64,000 nt of DNA from a virus, in IMG/VR virus record IMGVR_UViG_3300020152_000019, one strand, 5' to 3'. Within the stretch, counting starts at the first letter, position 1. Each line of letters opens with the position of its first letter. A program made the translations under genes and the position numbers. Positions 5,053-64,000 of this stretch are shown here, piece by piece. The notes under the pieces are model-generated. The model was not told the origin of the DNA and did no database searches. It saw nothing but the letters and a program-made list of their open reading frames with translations.

Positions 5053-6274
5053 ATTGAGTTCCTAAAAACACTTCAGTCGTTGGATGCATATCATGCGTTC
5101 TATGCGAAGTATCGACATAATCAATCTTCTCTAGATGTTCCTTTTCTGCAGGAGTAACAGCAGGCATGACTTTTTCGAAATCAAAGTCGCTAAAAGAACC
5201 AGACTCATGGGTTCTAGTCGCTACATCAGCAGACGTGCATGAGTTCTTTTTAAACTCTTGTACTTTAGTAAACAGTCCTCTTTCCAATTCTGAAAGATTA
5301 TACGTATTGACAGAGTTAAGATCCACGTTTTGAATATTCTTCGCCATACTACCAAGCTTATCAGAAAGATTCGAATACTGAATATTCTTATCTCTTCTTT
5401 CCGTGTGAATCAATGGCAGTTTAATTAATTCACCGCGTGCAGAAAGAAGGTTTCTATATTCATTACTGTGTGAAGGATATTGAGTAAGTTGTTGATCAAT
5501 ATCGTAAATATACTCTCTTCTAGCAGAGTGACTTATTTCAGAGTTTCTTAAGTTCAGTAAGTTATTTTTAAAGTTTCCAGATCTAGCACTCATAGTGAAA
5601 TCATTTCTACTTACCGGGGTAAGAAGAGGGATAGGTGATTTCGCATTAAGGTAACTAGCGTAAGTTTGTGTAAAGTTATTAAAGGTATTGGCAGCATTCA
5701 TCACTATACCTTTAGGACTAATGATTTTCTCAATAGACGAAAGAGGACCAGAAGCTTTCATTTCGGATTGAGTAAAACCTTTACAATACCGATCTAACCA
5801 ACTAAGCAATAACGCCGTAAGCAGACCTGCAATGATGTTTTTGTTTAAGGCGTAACCCAACATAAACAATTTTAAGAAGTCAAGATTATTACAAAGAAAT
5901 TTACTACCGACATGCAGTAAATCTTTCATAAAGTCTTTTACACCACCTAAATCTAACTTCTTAAGAGAGTCAAAGATGTCTTTAACGATATCTGGCATTT
6001 CTAAGTTACTAATAGCGTCTATGGCCGCATTAAGTGCGTCCTTTAGGGTTTGCATTACCTCGGACGTAGCGTTCATTATAGCGTCTTGTAGATCGCTTAA
6101 AGAACTACTTACCTTTTCGATTAATTCATCTTTTTCTTTTGCTTCTGCAATCGCTGAATTAATAATTTCATCGACGCTATTATAAACCGAATTATCATTT
6201 AACTTACTAAAATCTACGGTAGGTAAGTTAGTTTCTTTATCTAAATACTTAAACCTTTGTGCTGCTATCGACAT
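5045..6274 (-). CDS. hypothetical protein
   Basis: 409-aa ORF, helical N-terminus. Confidence 0.8.
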   Translation of the reverse strand: MSIAAQRFKYLDKETNLPTVDFSKLNDNSVYNSVDEIINSAIAEAKEKDELIEKVSSSLSDLQDAIMNATSEVMQTLKDALNAAIDAISNLEMPDIVKDIFDSLKKLDLGGVKDFMKDLLHVGSKFLCNNLDFLKLFMLGYALNKNIIAGLLTALLLSWLDRYCKGFTQSEMKASGPLSSIEKIISPKGIVMNAANTFNNFTQTYASYLNAKSPIPLLTPVSRNDFTMSARSGNFKNNLLNLRNSEISHSARREYIYDIDQQLTQYPSHSNEYRNLLSARGELIKLPLIHTERRDKNIQYSNLSDKLGSMAKNIQNVDLNSVNTYNLSELERGLFTKVQEFKKNSCTSADVATRTHESGSFSDFDFEKVMPAVTPAEKEHLEKIDYVDTSHRTHDMHPTTEVFLGTQYA

Positions 6275-36244: not shown

Positions 36245-36264
36245 TCTTTACTTGTTACTGTAAG

Positions 36265-36298
36265 AAGACTGCTAGAGGGTAACACCTCTAGCAGTCTT
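36265..36298 (+). terminator. intrinsic terminator
   Basis: AAGACTGCTAGAGG/CCTCTAGCAGTCTT plus T tract. Confidence 0.85.
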
Positions 36299-36367
36299 TT
36301 ATTCCCTTATGGAAAAATAGTGTGAAGTAATAACCTAGTTTATTTTAACCTGTTTAAGGAATATAAA

Positions 36368-37620: not shown

Positions 37621-37657
37621 AAGACTACCAGAGGGTAAAACCTCTGGTAGTTCTTTT
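37621..37657 (+). terminator. intrinsic terminator
   Basis: CTACCAGAGG/CCTCTGGTAG plus T tract. Confidence 0.8.
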
Positions 37658-38377: not shown

Positions 38378-38380
38378 TGA

Positions 38381-38418
38381 AGATAGATAGGAGGGTAACA
38401 CCTCCTATCTATTTTTTT
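38381..38418 (+). terminator. intrinsic terminator
   Basis: ATAGATAGGAGG/CCTCCTATCTAT plus T tract. Confidence 0.85.
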
Positions 38419-45242: not shown

Positions 45243-45332
45243 GGAGGTTTGGCCGAGCGGTCGATGGCACCGGTCTACTAAACCGGCATACGTGTAAACG
45301 TATCTAGGGTTCGAATCCCTAAGCCTCCGCCA
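45243..45332 (+). tRNA. trnS: tRNA-Ser(ACT)
   Basis: GGAGGTT/AGCCTCC acceptor stem, CCGGT-CTACTAA-ACCGG anticodon arm, long variable arm, G73, CCA. Confidence 0.9.
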
Positions 45333-45343
45333 TTAATAAAATT

Positions 45344-45378
45344 AAGAGAGCTAGAGGGTAATACCTCTAGCTCTTCTT
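45344..45378 (+). terminator. intrinsic terminator
   Basis: GAGCTAGAGG/CCTCTAGCTC hairpin. Confidence 0.8.
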
Positions 45379-50012: not shown

Positions 50013-50030
50013 AATTTGAATTAAATAGAG

Positions 50031-56943: not shown

Positions 56944-58485
56944 ATGTTTAAAAATGTGAAAATTAAAACACGATTAATATTTGTATTGATGTTTCTATCT
57001 TTACAATTAATCGTAGGTGCGGTAATTGGACTTGCTGGAATTTATGCCGGTAACGAAGAGATGAAGTCTTTGTATGAAGATCGTCTTGTAGCGCTTGCTG
57101 ATTTAGACCAGTTGATTCGTCTTCTTAACATGAATCAACTTGATCTTGCAAAATCAGTGACTGATACTAATCCTGATGAAATAAAATCTATTCTTGCTTC
57201 AATTGAATCACGACGAGACATTTTCGAGAAAACGTGGAATGCTTACATGGCTACCACTTTAACTGCAGACGAAAAGCTCTTCGCAGACCAGTTGACTATC
57301 GAACGTCAAGTTTTCGTCAATGAAGGATTAAATCCTACCATTGAAGCAGTTCGTAAAGGTGACACTGCTGCTGCGATCGAACTCATCCACGGTAAAATGG
57401 AAAAGACCTTCGTACCGGTGCGTGAGTCTATCAATAAACTAATTAAATTGCAAACCGATGTCGCTCTTGAAAGTTATAACGCATCGCAAAGACAATACGT
57501 TTTAATTCGTAATTTTTGTATTTTCGGTGTAGCCGTTGGTTTGTTAATGGCTTTTGGTTCTTGTGTATGGTTAATTAAATCCATTACCACGCCGATAAAT
57601 AAAGCTATTGATATTGCTAAAGGCGTTGCGAATGGTGATCTCACACAACAAATCACTGTTGACTCCACCAATGAAATGGGTGAGTTAATGAAAGCTCTAT
57701 CTGATATGAATAACGGTTTGCAACAAATCGTACTTCAAGTCAGAGGAGGCACCCAGCTTATCAATACCGCGTCTAATGAAATTGCCAGTGGTAACGCAGA
57801 TCTTTCTTCTCGCACTGAACAACAAGCAGCTTCATTAGAAGAGACAGCATCGTCGCTTGAAGAACTTACTTCTACCGTTCATCAAAACGCAGATAACGCT
57901 AAACAAGCGAGTTCTATGTCATTAACAGCCGCAACAGTTGTTAGTGAAGGTGGACAAGCAGTTGAGCGGTTAATTAATACAATGTCTGATATTAGAACGA
58001 GTTCTAACAAGATTACTGAAATCATTGGTGTGATTGATGGTATCGCTTTTCAAACCAATATCTTAGCTTTAAACGCAGCAGTTGAAGCTGCTCGCGCCGG
58101 AGAACAAGGTAGAGGTTTTGCGGTAGTTGCAACAGAAGTCAGAAGTTTAGCGCAACGTTCAGCCGCAGCAGCAAAAGAAATTAAAGAACTCATTAATCGT
58201 TCTGTAATGAATGTGGCTACCGGAAGTGATCAAGTTGAACATGTAGGTACAAAGATTAAAGACGCAGTAGCAAGCATTCAACGAGTCAATGATATCATGA
58301 CTGAAATTGCAGCAGCTAGTGCAGAGCAATCGACTGGCATTGATCAAATCAATACTGCTGTTTCACAAATGGATCAGGTAACTCAACAAAACGCAGCTTT
58401 AGTTGAACAAGCAGCAGCAGCGGCGGAAAGTATGAAAGAACAAGCTAATCAGTTAGCTCAAATCGTAAGTACTTTCAAAGTTTGA
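56944..58485 (+). CDS. methyl-accepting chemotaxis protein (full length)
   Basis: TM1, four-helix sensor, TM2, HAMP, signalling hairpin IAFQTNILALNAAVEAARAGEQGRGFAVVATEVRSLA, methylation helices. Confidence 0.97.
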   Translation: MFKNVKIKTRLIFVLMFLSLQLIVGAVIGLAGIYAGNEEMKSLYEDRLVALADLDQLIRLLNMNQLDLAKSVTDTNPDEIKSILASIESRRDIFEKTWNAYMATTLTADEKLFADQLTIERQVFVNEGLNPTIEAVRKGDTAAAIELIHGKMEKTFVPVRESINKLIKLQTDVALESYNASQRQYVLIRNFCIFGVAVGLLMAFGSCVWLIKSITTPINKAIDIAKGVANGDLTQQITVDSTNEMGELMKALSDMNNGLQQIVLQVRGGTQLINTASNEIASGNADLSSRTEQQAASLEETASSLEELTSTVHQNADNAKQASSMSLTAATVVSEGGQAVERLINTMSDIRTSSNKITEIIGVIDGIAFQTNILALNAAVEAARAGEQGRGFAVVATEVRSLAQRSAAAAKEIKELINRSVMNVATGSDQVEHVGTKIKDAVASIQRVNDIMTEIAAASAEQSTGIDQINTAVSQMDQVTQQNAALVEQAAAAAESMKEQANQLAQIVSTFKV

Positions 58486-60134: not shown

Positions 60135-60458
60135 ATGATTTATACGTTCGCTAATCGCACTGTAGGGCTTGTTGGGCAATTTGAGACGCCAATAGAACTT
60201 ATGCAATTGGCGATCTTTTATCTGGGCGGTAGATGTTTTGTTGTCTATAATAAAATAATCATTCCTGATGTGATTGTTATCGGGAAGCACACATCCAGTA
60301 AAGCCATCGAAGCTATCGAAAAACATTTCATGAATGGACAAATGTCAAGCATTCCTGTTTATGAAGCTAAGATTAACGACCACATGCCAGACGATAAAAT
60401 GTTTAGTGATATCCTCGATCGTGTAAAAGAAGAACTTCCTTGGTGTATTGGTTATTGA
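60135..60458 (+). CDS. possible stand-alone BRCT-like domain
   Basis: VGLVGQF...YLGG...DVIVIG...KAIEA...IPVY pattern. Confidence 0.45.
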   Translation: MIYTFANRTVGLVGQFETPIELMQLAIFYLGGRCFVVYNKIIIPDVIVIGKHTSSKAIEAIEKHFMNGQMSSIPVYEAKINDHMPDDKMFSDILDRVKEELPWCIGY

Positions 60459-60519
60459 AAAAATACTAGAAATCCATATATAGTGAACAGAACGCAACCT
60501 GCATTTGAAGTAAACACAA

Positions 60520-60530
60520 TTGCATATATA
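60520..60530 (+). promoter_or_regulatory. TTGCATATATA promoter-like motif
   Basis: one-mismatch copy with TTGAA and GTGA, heads the RNA island. Confidence 0.6.
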
Positions 60531-60572
60531 TTAAGTGATATAAGCATATGTGTAATTCCTATAGGAGATTAA

Positions 60573-60743
60573 ATGTCGACTGAAGAATTGAATGCTGAAA
60601 ATGCAAAGATTGCAGCAGACGCTAAGGAAGCACACAAAATCCTTTCTGAGCTTTGCTACAATCATGACGAGAATGCAACGCTTACTGATTTAGCAAATCG
60701 TGTGCGTAACATTGTAGTCGCTTCAACAGGTTGCGATCACTAG
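60573..60743 (+). CDS. hypothetical 56-aa protein
   Basis: AGGAG RBS; MSTEELNAEN...GCDH. Confidence 0.65.
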   Translation: MSTEELNAENAKIAADAKEAHKILSELCYNHDENATLTDLANRVRNIVVASTGCDH

Positions 60744-60752
60744 CAAGAATTT

Positions 60753-61343
60753 GCCCGAGTGGTGAAATTGGTAGACACAGCGGACTTATTGAAAAATTGA
60801 GCACCTACGAAAAATGCGGAAGTAAAACTTCAAACTAACCTTCCCGATCAAAAGGGAAAACTTGTAAGAAGGAATTTCGCAACCGAAAGGCGTATAAACA
60901 TTCTTCGGAATGGGTGAATCTCTTCAAATTCGGCGAACACTAAAAAAGCGATGAAGTCAGAGACTTCGCATAGTCGCATTAGCTCGGTGATACCGTCGAG
61001 CTAATTGATGTCAACGCCGAGCCAAGCCTGATAAGATCCTTTAAAGTATGGGTAAACTTCAGGAAGGTGTAGAGACTGTAAGGAGAGGATCTAAGTAGAG
61101 AGGGAGCAGGAATAGGTACCTGTTCACGGCAAGCAATTGCGTGTAATCAAATCGCCTTATCAAAACCCGATCTATACGATCAAGACACAGTCCAGACCAC
61201 GAACAGCGTATTCCATAAGTAGCTTCGGTCTTAACCTAAGCGAAATAGATGGTTGATCTCTGGCGTCGAAAGACGAAGTGGTAAGAAAATCCGCCGCTTA
61301 CCCGAGAGGGGGCGTACCGGTTCGATTCCGGTTTCGGGCACCA
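60753..61343 (+). tRNA. trnL: tRNA-Leu(TAA) split by a group I intron (exons 60753-60787 and 61286-61343)
   Basis: GCCCGAG/TTCGGGC acceptor stem; the splice rebuilds GCGGA-CTTAAAA-TCCGC; long variable arm; CCA. Confidence 0.92.
60788..61285 (+). mobile_element. group I intron (IC3-like, trnL(UAA) type), no ORF
   Basis: P/Q/R/S elements (CAAATTCGGCG, CGCCGAGCCAA, GAAGGTGTAGAGACTG, AAGACACAGTCC), P3 CTCTTC/GGAGAG, P9.0 ACCAC/GTGGT, terminal G after the U34 exon. Confidence 0.9.
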
Positions 61344-61345
61344 GA

Positions 61346-61990
61346 AAAGGTTCGGTAGTGAACCTCCCCTCTAAGCTTCGGCTTAGAGACAAGCCTCCTT
61401 TGGCAACTACCAAAAAGGCTAGGCAGGTAGCCTCCTCTCTGAATTTAGGTTTAGAGCCAAGTCCACTTGGACACCTGCCAGATTCACGTCGTGAGACGTT
61501 TATACTTAGACACCACCGTTGAAAGACGGTAAAGATCCAAAGCTTGCGTGCAGGGGCGGCCTGCTTCAAGAGCCATTTGAAATGCCGTAAAACCACCTGT
61601 AACTGGACTAAGTCCTAAGAGGGTGTAACTAATCCGGTAAGGCAACGGTAGTACTTGAATTAAGAATTAAAACGTGGATCGGTGAATCTTCTCAAAGTCG
61701 GTATGACTAAAAAAGCGATGAGGCTAGAGGTCTCTTAAGTTGCATTAGCTCGGTGTTATCGTCGAGCTAATTGATGTCAAAATCGAGCCAAGCTTAATGA
61801 TTCTATTAGATAACTTTCCTACCGGTGTGTTATTTGATAGTTTCTATTATGAAGGTGTAAGACTAATGGGAAGTACTGTTACTACTAAACTGACAGGAAG
61901 GGGAAGTTGGTAACAGTAAAAGGTCTAACCCATGAGCATAAATGAATCCTCCTGAGAAAAGTGTTCTGTTTATGTTTGTGGTTCTATTCT
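61346..61990 (+). ncRNA. free-standing group-I-derived structured RNA with a multi-hairpin 5' domain
   Basis: 61681-61930 is paralogous to the intron core with compensatory P3/P4 changes; 5' region rich in UUCG/GNRA hairpins; no exons found. Confidence 0.65.
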
Positions 61991-62006
61991 AAGAGAATAA
62001 GGAAAT

Positions 62007-62045
62007 ACCCTCAGGGAGCAATCCCTGAGGTTTCTAAATTTTTCC
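62007..62045 (+). terminator. intrinsic terminator-like hairpin
   Basis: CCTCAGGGA-GCAA-TCCCTGAGG followed by a T-rich tract. Confidence 0.65.
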
Positions 62046-62182
62046 TTGAGTGCGGTTGAACTGTATTTACGATTGTTCTTAGCTTTGCATTCGTGAGAGT
62101 GTAAGGATATTGTAAATGCGGTTGTTATTACCTCCGCATTCGAGAAGAATCAAGAGAGTAACATCTCTTGTATTATTGTCGT

Positions 62183-62515
62183 ATGGAGAGGGTAAAACTT
62201 CTCTGAGACTTTCAAGGTGAAAGGCTTCTGGACGCGGGTTCGATTCCCGCCTCGTCCAATAAGTACATTCTAACGAGTGTGGTTATTGGGCGAGTACTGG
62301 TTTCGACAGGGGTTAAGTAGGTGAGAAGGAACGACACGTCCATGAGCGCGGACGTTAATCTGGGTTCAATAAAGTAAATGCTGCTAATGATAGCCATTTC
62401 CGCGCTGCTGCCTAAAAACAGCTAACGGATGAGGTCACTAATCTAGTTCGCTAGGTTAGGTCGTCTACTCTCCCGATAATGACGGAGTCCTTATACCCCA
62501 AACAGGTAGACGACA
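62183..62515 (+). ncRNA. ssrA: circularly permuted two-piece tmRNA (acceptor piece ends 62258; coding piece starts 62288)
   Basis: T-arm GCGGG-TTCGATT-CCCGC plus CTCGTCC-A precedes GGGCGAG-TACTGGTTTCGAC; G3-U70 pair; tag ORF 62380-62415 (AANDSHFRAAA*); outer ends approximate. Confidence 0.9.
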
Positions 62516-62521
62516 CACGAC

Positions 62522-62598
62522 GTGCCCATAGCTCAGTAGGATAGAGCAACAGCCTTCTAAGCTGTGGGTCGGGGGTTCGAATCCCTCTGGGCGCGCCA
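62522..62598 (+). tRNA. trnR: tRNA-Arg(TCT)
   Basis: GTGCCCA/TGGGCGC acceptor stem, ACAGC-CTTCTAA-GCTGT anticodon arm, CCA. Confidence 0.95.
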
Positions 62599-62606
62599 TT
62601 GTTTCT

Positions 62607-62662
62607 GTAGTAAACTGAACTCAATCGAGTCAGAATTTTATAACTGTTATCTCGTTAAGGAG
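62607..62662 (+). repeat. leader repeat copy 1
   Basis: GTAGTAAACTGAACTCAATCGAGTCAG...AACTG...CTCGTTAAGG. Confidence 0.8.
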
Positions 62663-62668
62663 ATTAAT

Positions 62669-62872
62669 ATGAATGCTACCGCTCAACAAGCTGCGGAACA
62701 ATGTATTAGGAAGCATCATTTAGTATTAGATGAAAAACATAAACAGCTATTAATCGGACTTTTCGAGCAAGTCGAAGTTACGAAAAAAGGTATTTATTTA
62801 CACGAGCTTGGGAATAAGATAAGTAATTTTATCAAAACCCAAAAACGTAAACAACGCATGAAATTGAATTAA
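62669..62872 (+). CDS. hypothetical protein
   Basis: AAGGAG RBS before MNATAQQ. Confidence 0.7.
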   Translation: MNATAQQAAEQCIRKHHLVLDEKHKQLLIGLFEQVEVTKKGIYLHELGNKISNFIKTQKRKQRMKLN

Positions 62873-62874
62873 GA

Positions 62875-62930
62875 GTAGTAAACTGAACTCAATAGAGTCA
62901 GTCTTTTTTAAACTGTGTTCTCGTTAAGGG
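62875..62930 (+). repeat. leader repeat copy 2
   Basis: GTAGTAAACTGAACTCAATAGAGTCAG...AACTG...CTCGTTAAGG. Confidence 0.8.
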
Positions 62931-62939
62931 GAAATTAAA

Positions 62940-63305
62940 GTGTCAAATCTTCATATTGTAAAAACTGAATCTACTAAGCTTCAGTCTCGTATTTATAATG
63001 TAATCAAAGTTCTAGCTGGTTTAAATAAAACCACAATTATCAGGAAAGAAATTGTTGATTACTCTCGCTTCACTATCGAACATCCTCAGGCTTATGTTCC
63101 TGATTTTGACTTCGAGTGGTGCGACTCTAAAAAGCATTATCGAGTGTATATCCATCAAGCATTTACTAACGAAGCTAAACGCCGTCGTGGTTACTGCATT
63201 GCTGTGATTAACGGACCACTCGCTGCTACCGAATTCGTGCAGATGTATAAGTTCTTACATAAGCACCGCGCCAATAACAAAGATTCTATGCAAGAAGCAG
63301 CGTAA
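62940..63305 (+). CDS. hypothetical protein
   Basis: 121 aa, GTG start after AAGGGG. Confidence 0.75.
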   Translation: MSNLHIVKTESTKLQSRIYNVIKVLAGLNKTTIIRKEIVDYSRFTIEHPQAYVPDFDFEWCDSKKHYRVYIHQAFTNEAKRRRGYCIAVINGPLAATEFVQMYKFLHKHRANNKDSMQEAA

Positions 63306-63307
63306 AG

Positions 63308-63810
63308 AATACCCTCTGCAATACACAGAGTATGGATGACAAACTCATATTACCGGGGTAAGCGCAAGCAGCCGTCGGATAATGGTGATAAGGTCTACCC
63401 AATGTAGGAGCCGTGATAGTTAGACATTGATCTATACAGATTCGTGTCTACCAAGCGTCTAGGACATCGCCTTCGCACGACAAAGCGAACAAGCCTTGTT
63501 AAACGGTCTAGATAGATTCTTTACTGACTCAACCAGTTTATGAATGACGCTTTTGCTGCTGTTGAACTTATCGTGCTGAAACTGATCATTTCAGCGGTGG
63601 AGAAAACCTTTTATTCGGTAGACCTTGTTCGAGGAGTATAAGGTGGACATAGAAGCTAGATAAGAGCCGGGACCGCACTGACTGGCGGAGTGTCAAGTCG
63701 TCTGATACCAATTTGATTACGGGGTAGCTATATCCCTGACGGCTTAATAGAAGTGGAAGGAAACTTTTGCCTGAAGGCAGTTGGGAGTGGTATCCTAATT
63801 GTCTTTGGAG
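63308..63810 (+). ncRNA. unidentified large structured RNA
   Basis: GC-richer gene-free region with nested long-range helices (63370/63744, 63390/63626, 63453/63552); ends approximate. Confidence 0.6.
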
Positions 63811-63832
63811 AAAAGTTTTTAATAATAAAGAA

Positions 63833-63871
63833 ACTAGAGAAAGGAGTAACATCCTTTCTCTAGGGTATTCT
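63833..63871 (+). terminator. intrinsic terminator
   Basis: CTAGAGAAAGGA/TCCTTTCTCTAG then a T tract. Confidence 0.75.
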
Positions 63872-63930
63872 TTTTTTGCTGTACCTGAGTCACGGCGGGT
63901 CTCCGTGGCATTTTTAATAGGAGTTTCTAA

Positions 63931-64000
63931 ATGAAACTGAAATTCACGAAAGACGCACAAGCAGTTATCGATGAAATTGCTAAACTTCCTACTCAAACTT
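63931..64000 (+). CDS. partial CDS running off the window
   Basis: AGGAG RBS, MKLKFTKDAQ... Confidence 0.6.
   Translation, partial: MKLKFTKDAQAVIDEIAKLPTQT

Follow-up and report, generated by a model that had tools for sequence, protein, structure and literature searches.

A circularly permuted (two-piece) ssrA gene lies near the end of the 64,000-nt stretch analysed here (the window), which belongs to the genome of a phiKZ-like jumbo phage. The product of ssrA, tmRNA, is the RNA that rescues stalled ribosomes. ARAGORN called a permuted tmRNA (tmRNA*) at 62169-62506 on the plus strand with the tag AANDSHFRAAA*. Two Rfam models matched as well: beta_tmRNA (RF01850) over 62154-62463 with 99 bits (E=7e-29; cut-off 84) and tmRNA_permuted (RF04321) with 94.9 bits (E=4e-17; cut-off 47). 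RF01850 gave the best score among the models of clan CL00001, of which overlapping lower-scoring matches were dropped; membership in this family is marginal, being 15 bits above the cut-off as compared to the 169-296 bits reached by bacterial genes. The call is far above chance level. An earlier note, made from the letters alone, had proposed a permuted two-piece tmRNA in a phage at 62183-62515 and had suggested a check with permuted models. ARAGORN and both Rfam models were positive, and the existence of a real two-piece ssrA gene within a phage is thus confirmed, with boundaries that differ slightly from the span first given. That a phiKZ-like jumbo phage here carries a functional-looking permuted ssrA gene is, in our judgement, very likely, and the sequence suggests that the gene is probably functional. 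It is a very divergent tmRNA of known type rather than a new kind of element, since two-piece tmRNAs of phages are already published and common.

The region 61900-62800 was read directly, and substrings were checked by script. On the plus strand, the 3' tRNA-like half is followed by the intervening segment and then by the 5' tRNA-like half with the tag frame. The core of the acceptor piece (62224-62258) was delimited by sequence, Rfam, fold and stem comparison. It comprises the 5' strand of helix 2a, GCTTCTG (62224-62230), the T arm GCGGG/TTCGATT/CCCGC (62234-62250), the 3' acceptor strand CTCGTCC (62251-62257) and the discriminator A73 (62258). As the next letters are ATA, CCA is not encoded. 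Cyanobacterial permuted genes likewise lack an encoded CCA, so this feature is no defect. After the 29-nt intervening segment (62259-62287; fold and Rfam alignment), the coding piece starts (62288-62313) with the 5' acceptor strand GGGCGAG (62288-62294), the D-loop analogue TACTGGTTTCGA (62295-62306) and the 3' strand of helix 2a, CAGGGGT (62307-62313), which pairs with GCTTCTG. The T arm, CTCGTCC, A73 and unencoded CCA ahead of GGGCGAG, the 29-nt spacer and the D-loop-like stretch were all located where the earlier note had placed them.

The two acceptor strands form seven pairs including G3-U70, the alanine determinant recognized previously; together with A73 and the 7-bp stem the alanine identity elements are present. 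G1-C72, G2-C71 and G3-U70 are common to the correctly extracted phage, beta-type and cyanobacterial copies compared, and the phage copies always have A73 as well. Pairs 4-7 co-vary between copies with pairing kept, the window having A6-U67 and nearly all other rows U6-A67; such retention of pairing with changed letters is as expected for a selected stem. The T loop and the D-loop analogue CUGGUUUCGAC are letter-identical to the beta consensus in the Rfam alignment. T arm and D-loop analogue constitute the SmpB-binding face of the tRNA-like domain. An unconstrained minimum free energy (MFE) co-fold of both pieces recovered the acceptor stem, the T arm and, as a 7-bp helix 2a, the pairing that had been proposed as helix 2 (CAGGGG/CTTCTG). 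When the precursor is folded, the intervening segment becomes a hairpin that stacks on the acceptor stem. This segment is too short for any ORF and would be removed during maturation.

Outside this core the gene departs from the models. Where the Rfam model has an outer helix 2, the window gene shows mismatches and is out of register. CTTCTC (62198-62203) could pair with GAGAAG (62323-62328) to form an alternative outer helix 2 of 6 bp, drawn by hand with the letters checked in the sequence. MFE fold and hairpin search both gave a hairpin on the 5' side (62184-62205, +) that has the loop GTAAAA and lacks a T tract; CTTCTC is its 3' strand, so that the two pairings would be alternatives. Because the Rfam models do not include pseudoknots, a candidate pseudoknot 1 was drawn by manual pairing. 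The candidate (62336-62368, +) is of the H-type, with a 6-bp stem 1 (62336-62341 with 62350-62355) and a 5-bp stem 2 (TGAGC, 62343-62347, with GTTCA, 62364-62368), and it ends 11 nt ahead of the resume codon. A similar pairing can be drawn in one other case, the copy of Acinetobacter phage 3098. Close relatives for a covariation analysis were sought with acceptor-specific and tag-specific patterns in metagenome_contigs and viral_contigs, with 0 matches, and a blastn search of 50,697 phage records gave matches restricted to the tRNA-like core.

The tag frame GCT GCT AAT GAT AGC CAT TTC CGC GCT GCT GCC TAA (62380-62415, +) was located by ARAGORN and by Rfam alignment to the beta consensus tag. 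It encodes AANDSHFRAAA* in 11 uninterrupted codons, with an alanine resume codon in an intact UAAAU context, a C-terminal Ala-Ala and a UAA stop. Translation could resume at the first or the second GCT; ARAGORN takes the first, and alignment to Rfam as well as comparison with the 3098 copy speak for the second. Acinetobacter phage 3098 has the closest tag, ANDSTF..., and the end RAAA of the window's tag differs from the usual ALAA or LAA. The coding piece closes with a structured 3' tail (62437-62514, +; fold and terminator scan). In the fold this tail has two hairpins (+), one with a UUCG loop (62438-62459) and a long one whose closing strands are GTCGTCTAC (62460-62468) and GTAGACGAC (62506-62514). 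Coverage by the Rfam model stops at 62463, inside this tail. Two mechanical ORFs of 61 and 57 codons run antisense to the tmRNA and the adjacent tRNA-Arg (62212-62397 and 62451-62624, both minus strand); they are likely to be spurious and could be miscalled as genes.

Proteins of the window had PHROG matches to tail fibre, virion, internal head and DNA polymerase families and Pfam matches to phiKZ_IP and Phage_TTP_15. A 958-aa virion protein is kept across phiKZ-like phages and is 57% identical to its homologue in vB_BspM_AgentSmith, a 200-kb jumbo phage with which the window is syntenic from position 1 to about 54.1 kb. The remainder (54.1-64 kb) has no counterpart in AgentSmith, whose comparable variable region carries tRNA-Lys and tRNA-Arg(UCU) without a tmRNA. 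The window proteins map to contig k141_498264 (234,290 bp) of ENA assembly ERZ27252484. The ends of this contig correspond to window positions 61687 and 61547 and overlap by 141 nt, the k-mer length of the assembler; the assembly is therefore circular, the window spans the join, and the tmRNA is physically part of the phage genome. A terminator-loop motif of the phage (GTAANA, see below) is present on either side of the junction. The genome is that of an uncultured, metagenomic, circular 234-kb phiKZ-like jumbo phage. In the 71 kb examined of the 234 kb no SmpB is encoded, and tmRNA function would hence rest wholly on host factors.

A hint of the host came from a 513-aa gene (56944-58485, +) encoding a complete methyl-accepting chemotaxis protein with TarH, 4HB_MCP, HAMP and MCPsignal domains. 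Its best named homologues (55-60% identity) are from Oxalobacteraceae, namely Noviherbaspirillum, Herbaspirillum, Massilia and Glaciimonas, which weakly suggests an Oxalobacteraceae-like betaproteobacterium as host. These homologues give no support to a Bacillus host, the one with which AgentSmith, the nearest phage, is labelled. The one Oxalobacteraceae genome checked, Noviherbaspirillum sp. UKPF54, has a full-length one-piece tmRNA (RF00023, 209 bits), and the phage tmRNA would thus probably differ in form from that of its host. Loci retrieved via the 513-aa protein (L005-L014) were rejected as phage relatives: they are mostly bacterial proviral regions with chemoreceptor homologues, and their missing tmRNA is therefore uninformative.

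Three lineages of permuted tmRNA are known, in alphaproteobacteria, some betaproteobacteria and cyanobacteria. Maximum-likelihood trees computed without alphaproteobacterial sequences separated the beta from the cyanobacterial genes with 100/100 support and placed the window gene with the former; its branch is very long, which makes its position inside the beta group uncertain. The window gene is about 50% identical to bacterial beta genes. The letters TACTGGTTTCGACAGGG are of the beta type (cyanobacterial counterpart, AATGGTTTCGACGGGG). The intervening segment AAGTACATTC...GAGTGTGGTT shares its architecture with the Thauera-type segment AAGTGCATTC...GAGTGTGCTT, and in the Rfam alignment sequence similarity to the beta consensus continues along it; by these marks the two segments are homologous. 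The gene thus descends from the betaproteobacterial permuted lineage and, judged by sequence, is a very divergent member of its Rhodocyclales type. In the GTDB order holding the Rhodocyclales-type genes, 4 of 151 sampled genomes had one above the cut-off, and one-piece tmRNAs of that sample scored at most about 50 bits on RF01850.

The two-piece tmRNAs of Rhodocyclales (Thauera, Dechloromonas, Accumulibacter; RF01850) share with the window gene the gene order, T arm, D-loop analogue and helix 2a, a homologous hairpin in the intervening region, which is a long segment in these bacteria, and a tag that starts with AND..F and ends with AA. In comparison to them, the window gene differs in acceptor pairs 4-7, encodes no CC or CCA, has the outer helix 2 out of register and an extra 3' hairpin, specifies AANDSHFRAAA instead of ANDERFALAA, and is phage-borne. 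One-piece tmRNAs (RF00023, e.g., of Noviherbaspirillum) have the logic of the tRNA-like domain and the alanine-started tag in common with it but, unlike the window gene, are encoded by an unpermuted gene and consist of a single RNA molecule. The core pattern of a permuted tmRNA was also matched at positions 5443-5510 of a contig (L080) binned as a Sphingobacterium thalpophilum MAG, which is unexpected in Bacteroidota and may reflect a prophage or a binning error.

For a search of phage records the window and a Thauera gene served as queries, and tags were taken from ARAGORN calls. Seven further phage records that were examined contain comparable beta-type copies, which are often part of tRNA clusters. 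The permuted tmRNAs found include those of Acinetobacter phage vB_AbaM_3098 (tag ANDSTFGTRALAA; 88.9 bits on RF01850 and 108 bits on RF04321), Stenotrophomonas phage DLP_6 (ANDDSFAPMAIAA; 103.7 and 136.8 bits), Pseudomonas phage PaMx31 of the SM1 group (ANDTSFDVRLAA; 109.3 and 118.5 bits), Xanthomonas phage XacN1 (ANANTFDYALAA; 107.8 and 123.2 bits), Stenotrophomonas phage Marzo (VAANDDSYTVRIAA; 94.6 and 119 bits) and Xanthomonas phage BUDD (VAANDADYSVARYA; below the RF01850 cut-off, 77.5 bits on RF04321). All are divergent, and scores ranged from 89 to 109 bits on RF01850 where the cut-off was passed and from 77 to 137 bits on RF04321 for all copies. The tags are of the form AND(S/T/D)xF, and most copies are inside or adjoin tRNA genes; in PaMx31, tRNA-Arg(UCU) lies 11 nt upstream. 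All named hosts are Gammaproteobacteria, outside the three known permuted lineages. CCA is encoded in these copies, whose intervening segments measure about 30-130 nt, in contrast to the window gene (no CCA, 29 nt), and blastn detected no similarity between them and the window past the core. In the tree all phage copies fell inside the beta group; the window gene paired with the 3098 copy (90/94, with a long-branch caveat), and support for a single phage clade was equivocal (42/84). Permuted tmRNAs with 109 bits on RF01850 were also found in three IMG/VR contigs (L002-L004).

Previous reports place the gene in a wider context. A two-piece tmRNA was described in the Methylophilales phage Melnitz by Buchholz et al. 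2022 (PMC9004378), and the same paper reports tmRNAs for 402 of 18,146 phage genomes; of the 133 unique ones, 53 are two-piece. The 2025 tmRNA database holds 79 phage sequences. The marine phages (Melnitz, pelagimyophages and cyanophages; PMC9004378) resemble the present one in carrying a permuted ssrA, and the type of the Melnitz tmRNA is likewise mismatched to the lineage of its host. In contrast, Melnitz has an alphaproteobacterial-type copy with a glutamine riboswitch, whereas the window copy is of the beta type and no Rfam riboswitch was detected in 60400-64000. No paper testing the function of a phage tmRNA was found in the searchable literature.

The tmRNA gene is followed by tRNA-Arg(UCU) with encoded CCA (62522-62598, +; ARAGORN and Rfam). 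As proposed earlier, the coding piece ends about 7 nt before it, the last hairpin ending at 62514. Terminator scan and fold revealed no T-tract terminator between the two genes, which makes it plausible that they are co-transcribed, as is probably the case, and that an RNase P cut at tRNA-Arg would free the 3' end of the tmRNA. A parallel exists in phage Marzo, where tRNA-Thr abuts the 3' end of the permuted tmRNA. The tRNA-Arg(UCU) of the window is nearest, among those compared, to that of AgentSmith. A mobile cassette of tRNA-Arg(UCU) and tmRNA was considered and rejected, the tRNA-Arg genes of PaMx31 and 3098 not being specifically related to that of the window.

On the 5' side, the terminator scan identified a phage-type hairpin with a 7-bp stem, a GTAACA loop and a T-rich tail (62151-62170, +), which likely ends the upstream transcript and bounds the tmRNA unit. 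Hairpins with GTAANA loops also follow genes at 36263-36300, 37623-37652, 38379-38416, 45346-45375 and 63834-63863 (all +). The GTAANA hexaloop on a GC-rich stem, usually with a T tract, is a common feature of the intrinsic terminators of this phage. A seventh copy of the motif is the hairpin without T tract at 62184-62205, which overlaps the 5' end of the tmRNA unit; the loops of both hairpins upstream of the tmRNA (GTAACA and GTAAAA) hence match those of the phage's terminators. The promoter scan detected no sigma-70 promoter on the plus strand upstream of the tmRNA. The 13-mer GATTACATATATA occurs five times as an exact copy, always on the plus strand (38436, 45399, 46452, 51793 and 53015), with variants at 50029, 59021 and 60518. 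Copies 38436 and 45399 lie shortly downstream of a terminator, and the variant at 60518 has two mismatches and lies at the start of an RNA-rich stretch. The motif is likely a phage promoter; it is absent between 62031 and 62190, and the variant nearest to the tmRNA is that at 60518. In the vicinity of the tmRNA an earlier reader had seen an intron-containing tRNA-Leu, an intron-derived RNA and a large structured RNA (60753-61990 and 63308-63810). With permissive filters no Rfam family (neither group I intron nor other RNA) was found in either region at E<=1, and ARAGORN with default settings found no tRNA-Leu. Elsewhere in the window, ARAGORN called a tRNA-Ser with anticodon ACT (45243-45332, +; 53 bits on the Rfam tRNA model), an unusual serine tRNA with A34.

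From established tmRNA biology and the intact determinants we infer how the gene would act; precedent and a processing model for two-piece tmRNA are available (PMC9004378, PMC11915505). A single precursor would be transcribed, probably along with the adjacent tRNA-Arg. Host tRNA-processing enzymes would cut it, RNase P at G1 (62288) and a 3' end-maturing activity past A73 (62258), where the CCA-adding enzyme would act next; the 29-nt intervening segment would thereby be released. The two RNAs would stay joined via the 7-bp acceptor stem and helix 2 and be charged with alanine through G3-U70 and A73. Host SmpB and EF-Tu would then bring the charged tRNA-like domain to ribosomes stalled on broken mRNAs, where translation would restart on GCU and append (A)ANDSHFRAAA as a degradation tag of the common ssrA kind. 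The purpose may be to keep ribosomes free during infection, when the cell is flooded with truncated host mRNAs; the host's own tmRNA is probably one-piece.

Three other readings of the locus were weighed. A chance tRNA-like element, a leftover of integration from a host ssrA or a mimic of an attachment site would give a tmRNA-like sequence that is not a tmRNA, and tmRNA genes are indeed common integration targets whose fragments occur in prophages (PMC9004378). This explanation, which has hardly any probability left, is already effectively refuted by the ARAGORN and Rfam results, as the sequence contains the two tRNA-like halves along with the tag frame, arranged in permuted order, at E-values of 1e-17 to 1e-29; moreover, the phage is of the phiKZ-like lytic type and no integrase was found among the products scanned. 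Alternatively, a permuted ssrA might have been acquired from a bacterium or from another phage, have lost its function and now be drifting. The very long branch, the score only 15 bits above the RF01850 cut-off, the lost register of the outer helix 2, the unencoded CCA, the lack of an obvious promoter upstream and the absence of the gene from AgentSmith, the closest sequenced phage relative, would all fit such a decaying relic. However, the divergence is mostly outside the functional core, and changes in the acceptor stem are compensatory rather than disruptive. The G3-U70 stem, T loop, D-loop analogue, helix 2a, Ala resume codon with UAAAU, and an 11-codon tag ending in AA before UAA are intact. 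We therefore regard a relic as improbable; some decay may nevertheless have occurred, in view of the long branch and of 99 bits versus 169-296 bits.

The RNA could also be intact and serve another end, by titrating host SmpB, by competing with host tmRNA or by altering the fate of tagged proteins through the AAA-ending tag. A precedent is mycobacteriophage DS6A, for whose RNA, consisting of the tRNA-like domain only, inhibition is cited (PMC4131195, PMC11915505). The unusual RAAA end and the probable presence of a one-piece tmRNA in the likely host type point in the same direction. Unlike the DS6A RNA, however, the window gene has kept a complete tag frame, the resume context and the candidate pseudoknot 1; it also retains the terminal Ala-Ala of ssrA tags, and its sequence bears no sign of an inability to be charged. 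We consider such a decoy or modulator quite improbable, and the preferred reading remains that of a probably functional two-piece tmRNA.

With respect to the phage copies as a whole, it is conceivable, if on balance unlikely, that they form one phage-borne permuted lineage that was derived once from a Rhodocyclales-type gene and now circulates among unrelated phages whose hosts have one-piece tmRNAs. Its range may include Samunavirus, T4-like, jumbo and phiKZ-like phages. If true, these phages would own a host-independent rescue RNA, which might work on while the host tmRNA is disabled in infection, or whose RAAA end might alter the fate of tagged proteins. The window gene adds a well-documented case: the two-piece tmRNA is complete, the phage that carries it is a phiKZ-like jumbo phage, and the subtype is probably mismatched to the tmRNA of the host. 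Compact, tRNA-adjoined examples of this kind would be convenient objects for testing the roles of phage tmRNAs.

A practical point concerns annotation, as several GenBank phage records omit the homologous gene or cover it with spurious CDS calls. It is named tmRNA in the records of Marzo, Bhz51 and Yut2/3 and is blank or CDS-covered in those of 3098, DLP_6, PaMx31, BUDD and XacN1. The expectation that standard annotation would miss the window gene therefore holds in part: it is readily detected by ARAGORN and by two Rfam models, whereas its homologues went unannotated in these records. Permuted tmRNAs that are unannotated or overlaid by a 'hypothetical protein' lie at 1450-1786 of L144 (PV081573.1), 1447-1790 of L145 (KU682439.2), 1468-1888 of L146 (JQ067090.1), 952-1403 of L147 (ON758385.1) and 952-1372 of L148 (AP018399.1); the phages concerned infect Acinetobacter, Stenotrophomonas, Pseudomonas and Xanthomonas. 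In two of the IMG/VR contigs (L002, 672-2024; L003, 10780-12132), a permuted tmRNA with the tag ANDAYFVAPAVSAARELRLAA lies beside two tRNAs with the amber-reading anticodon CUA, which suggests stop-codon reassignment or suppression in that phage.
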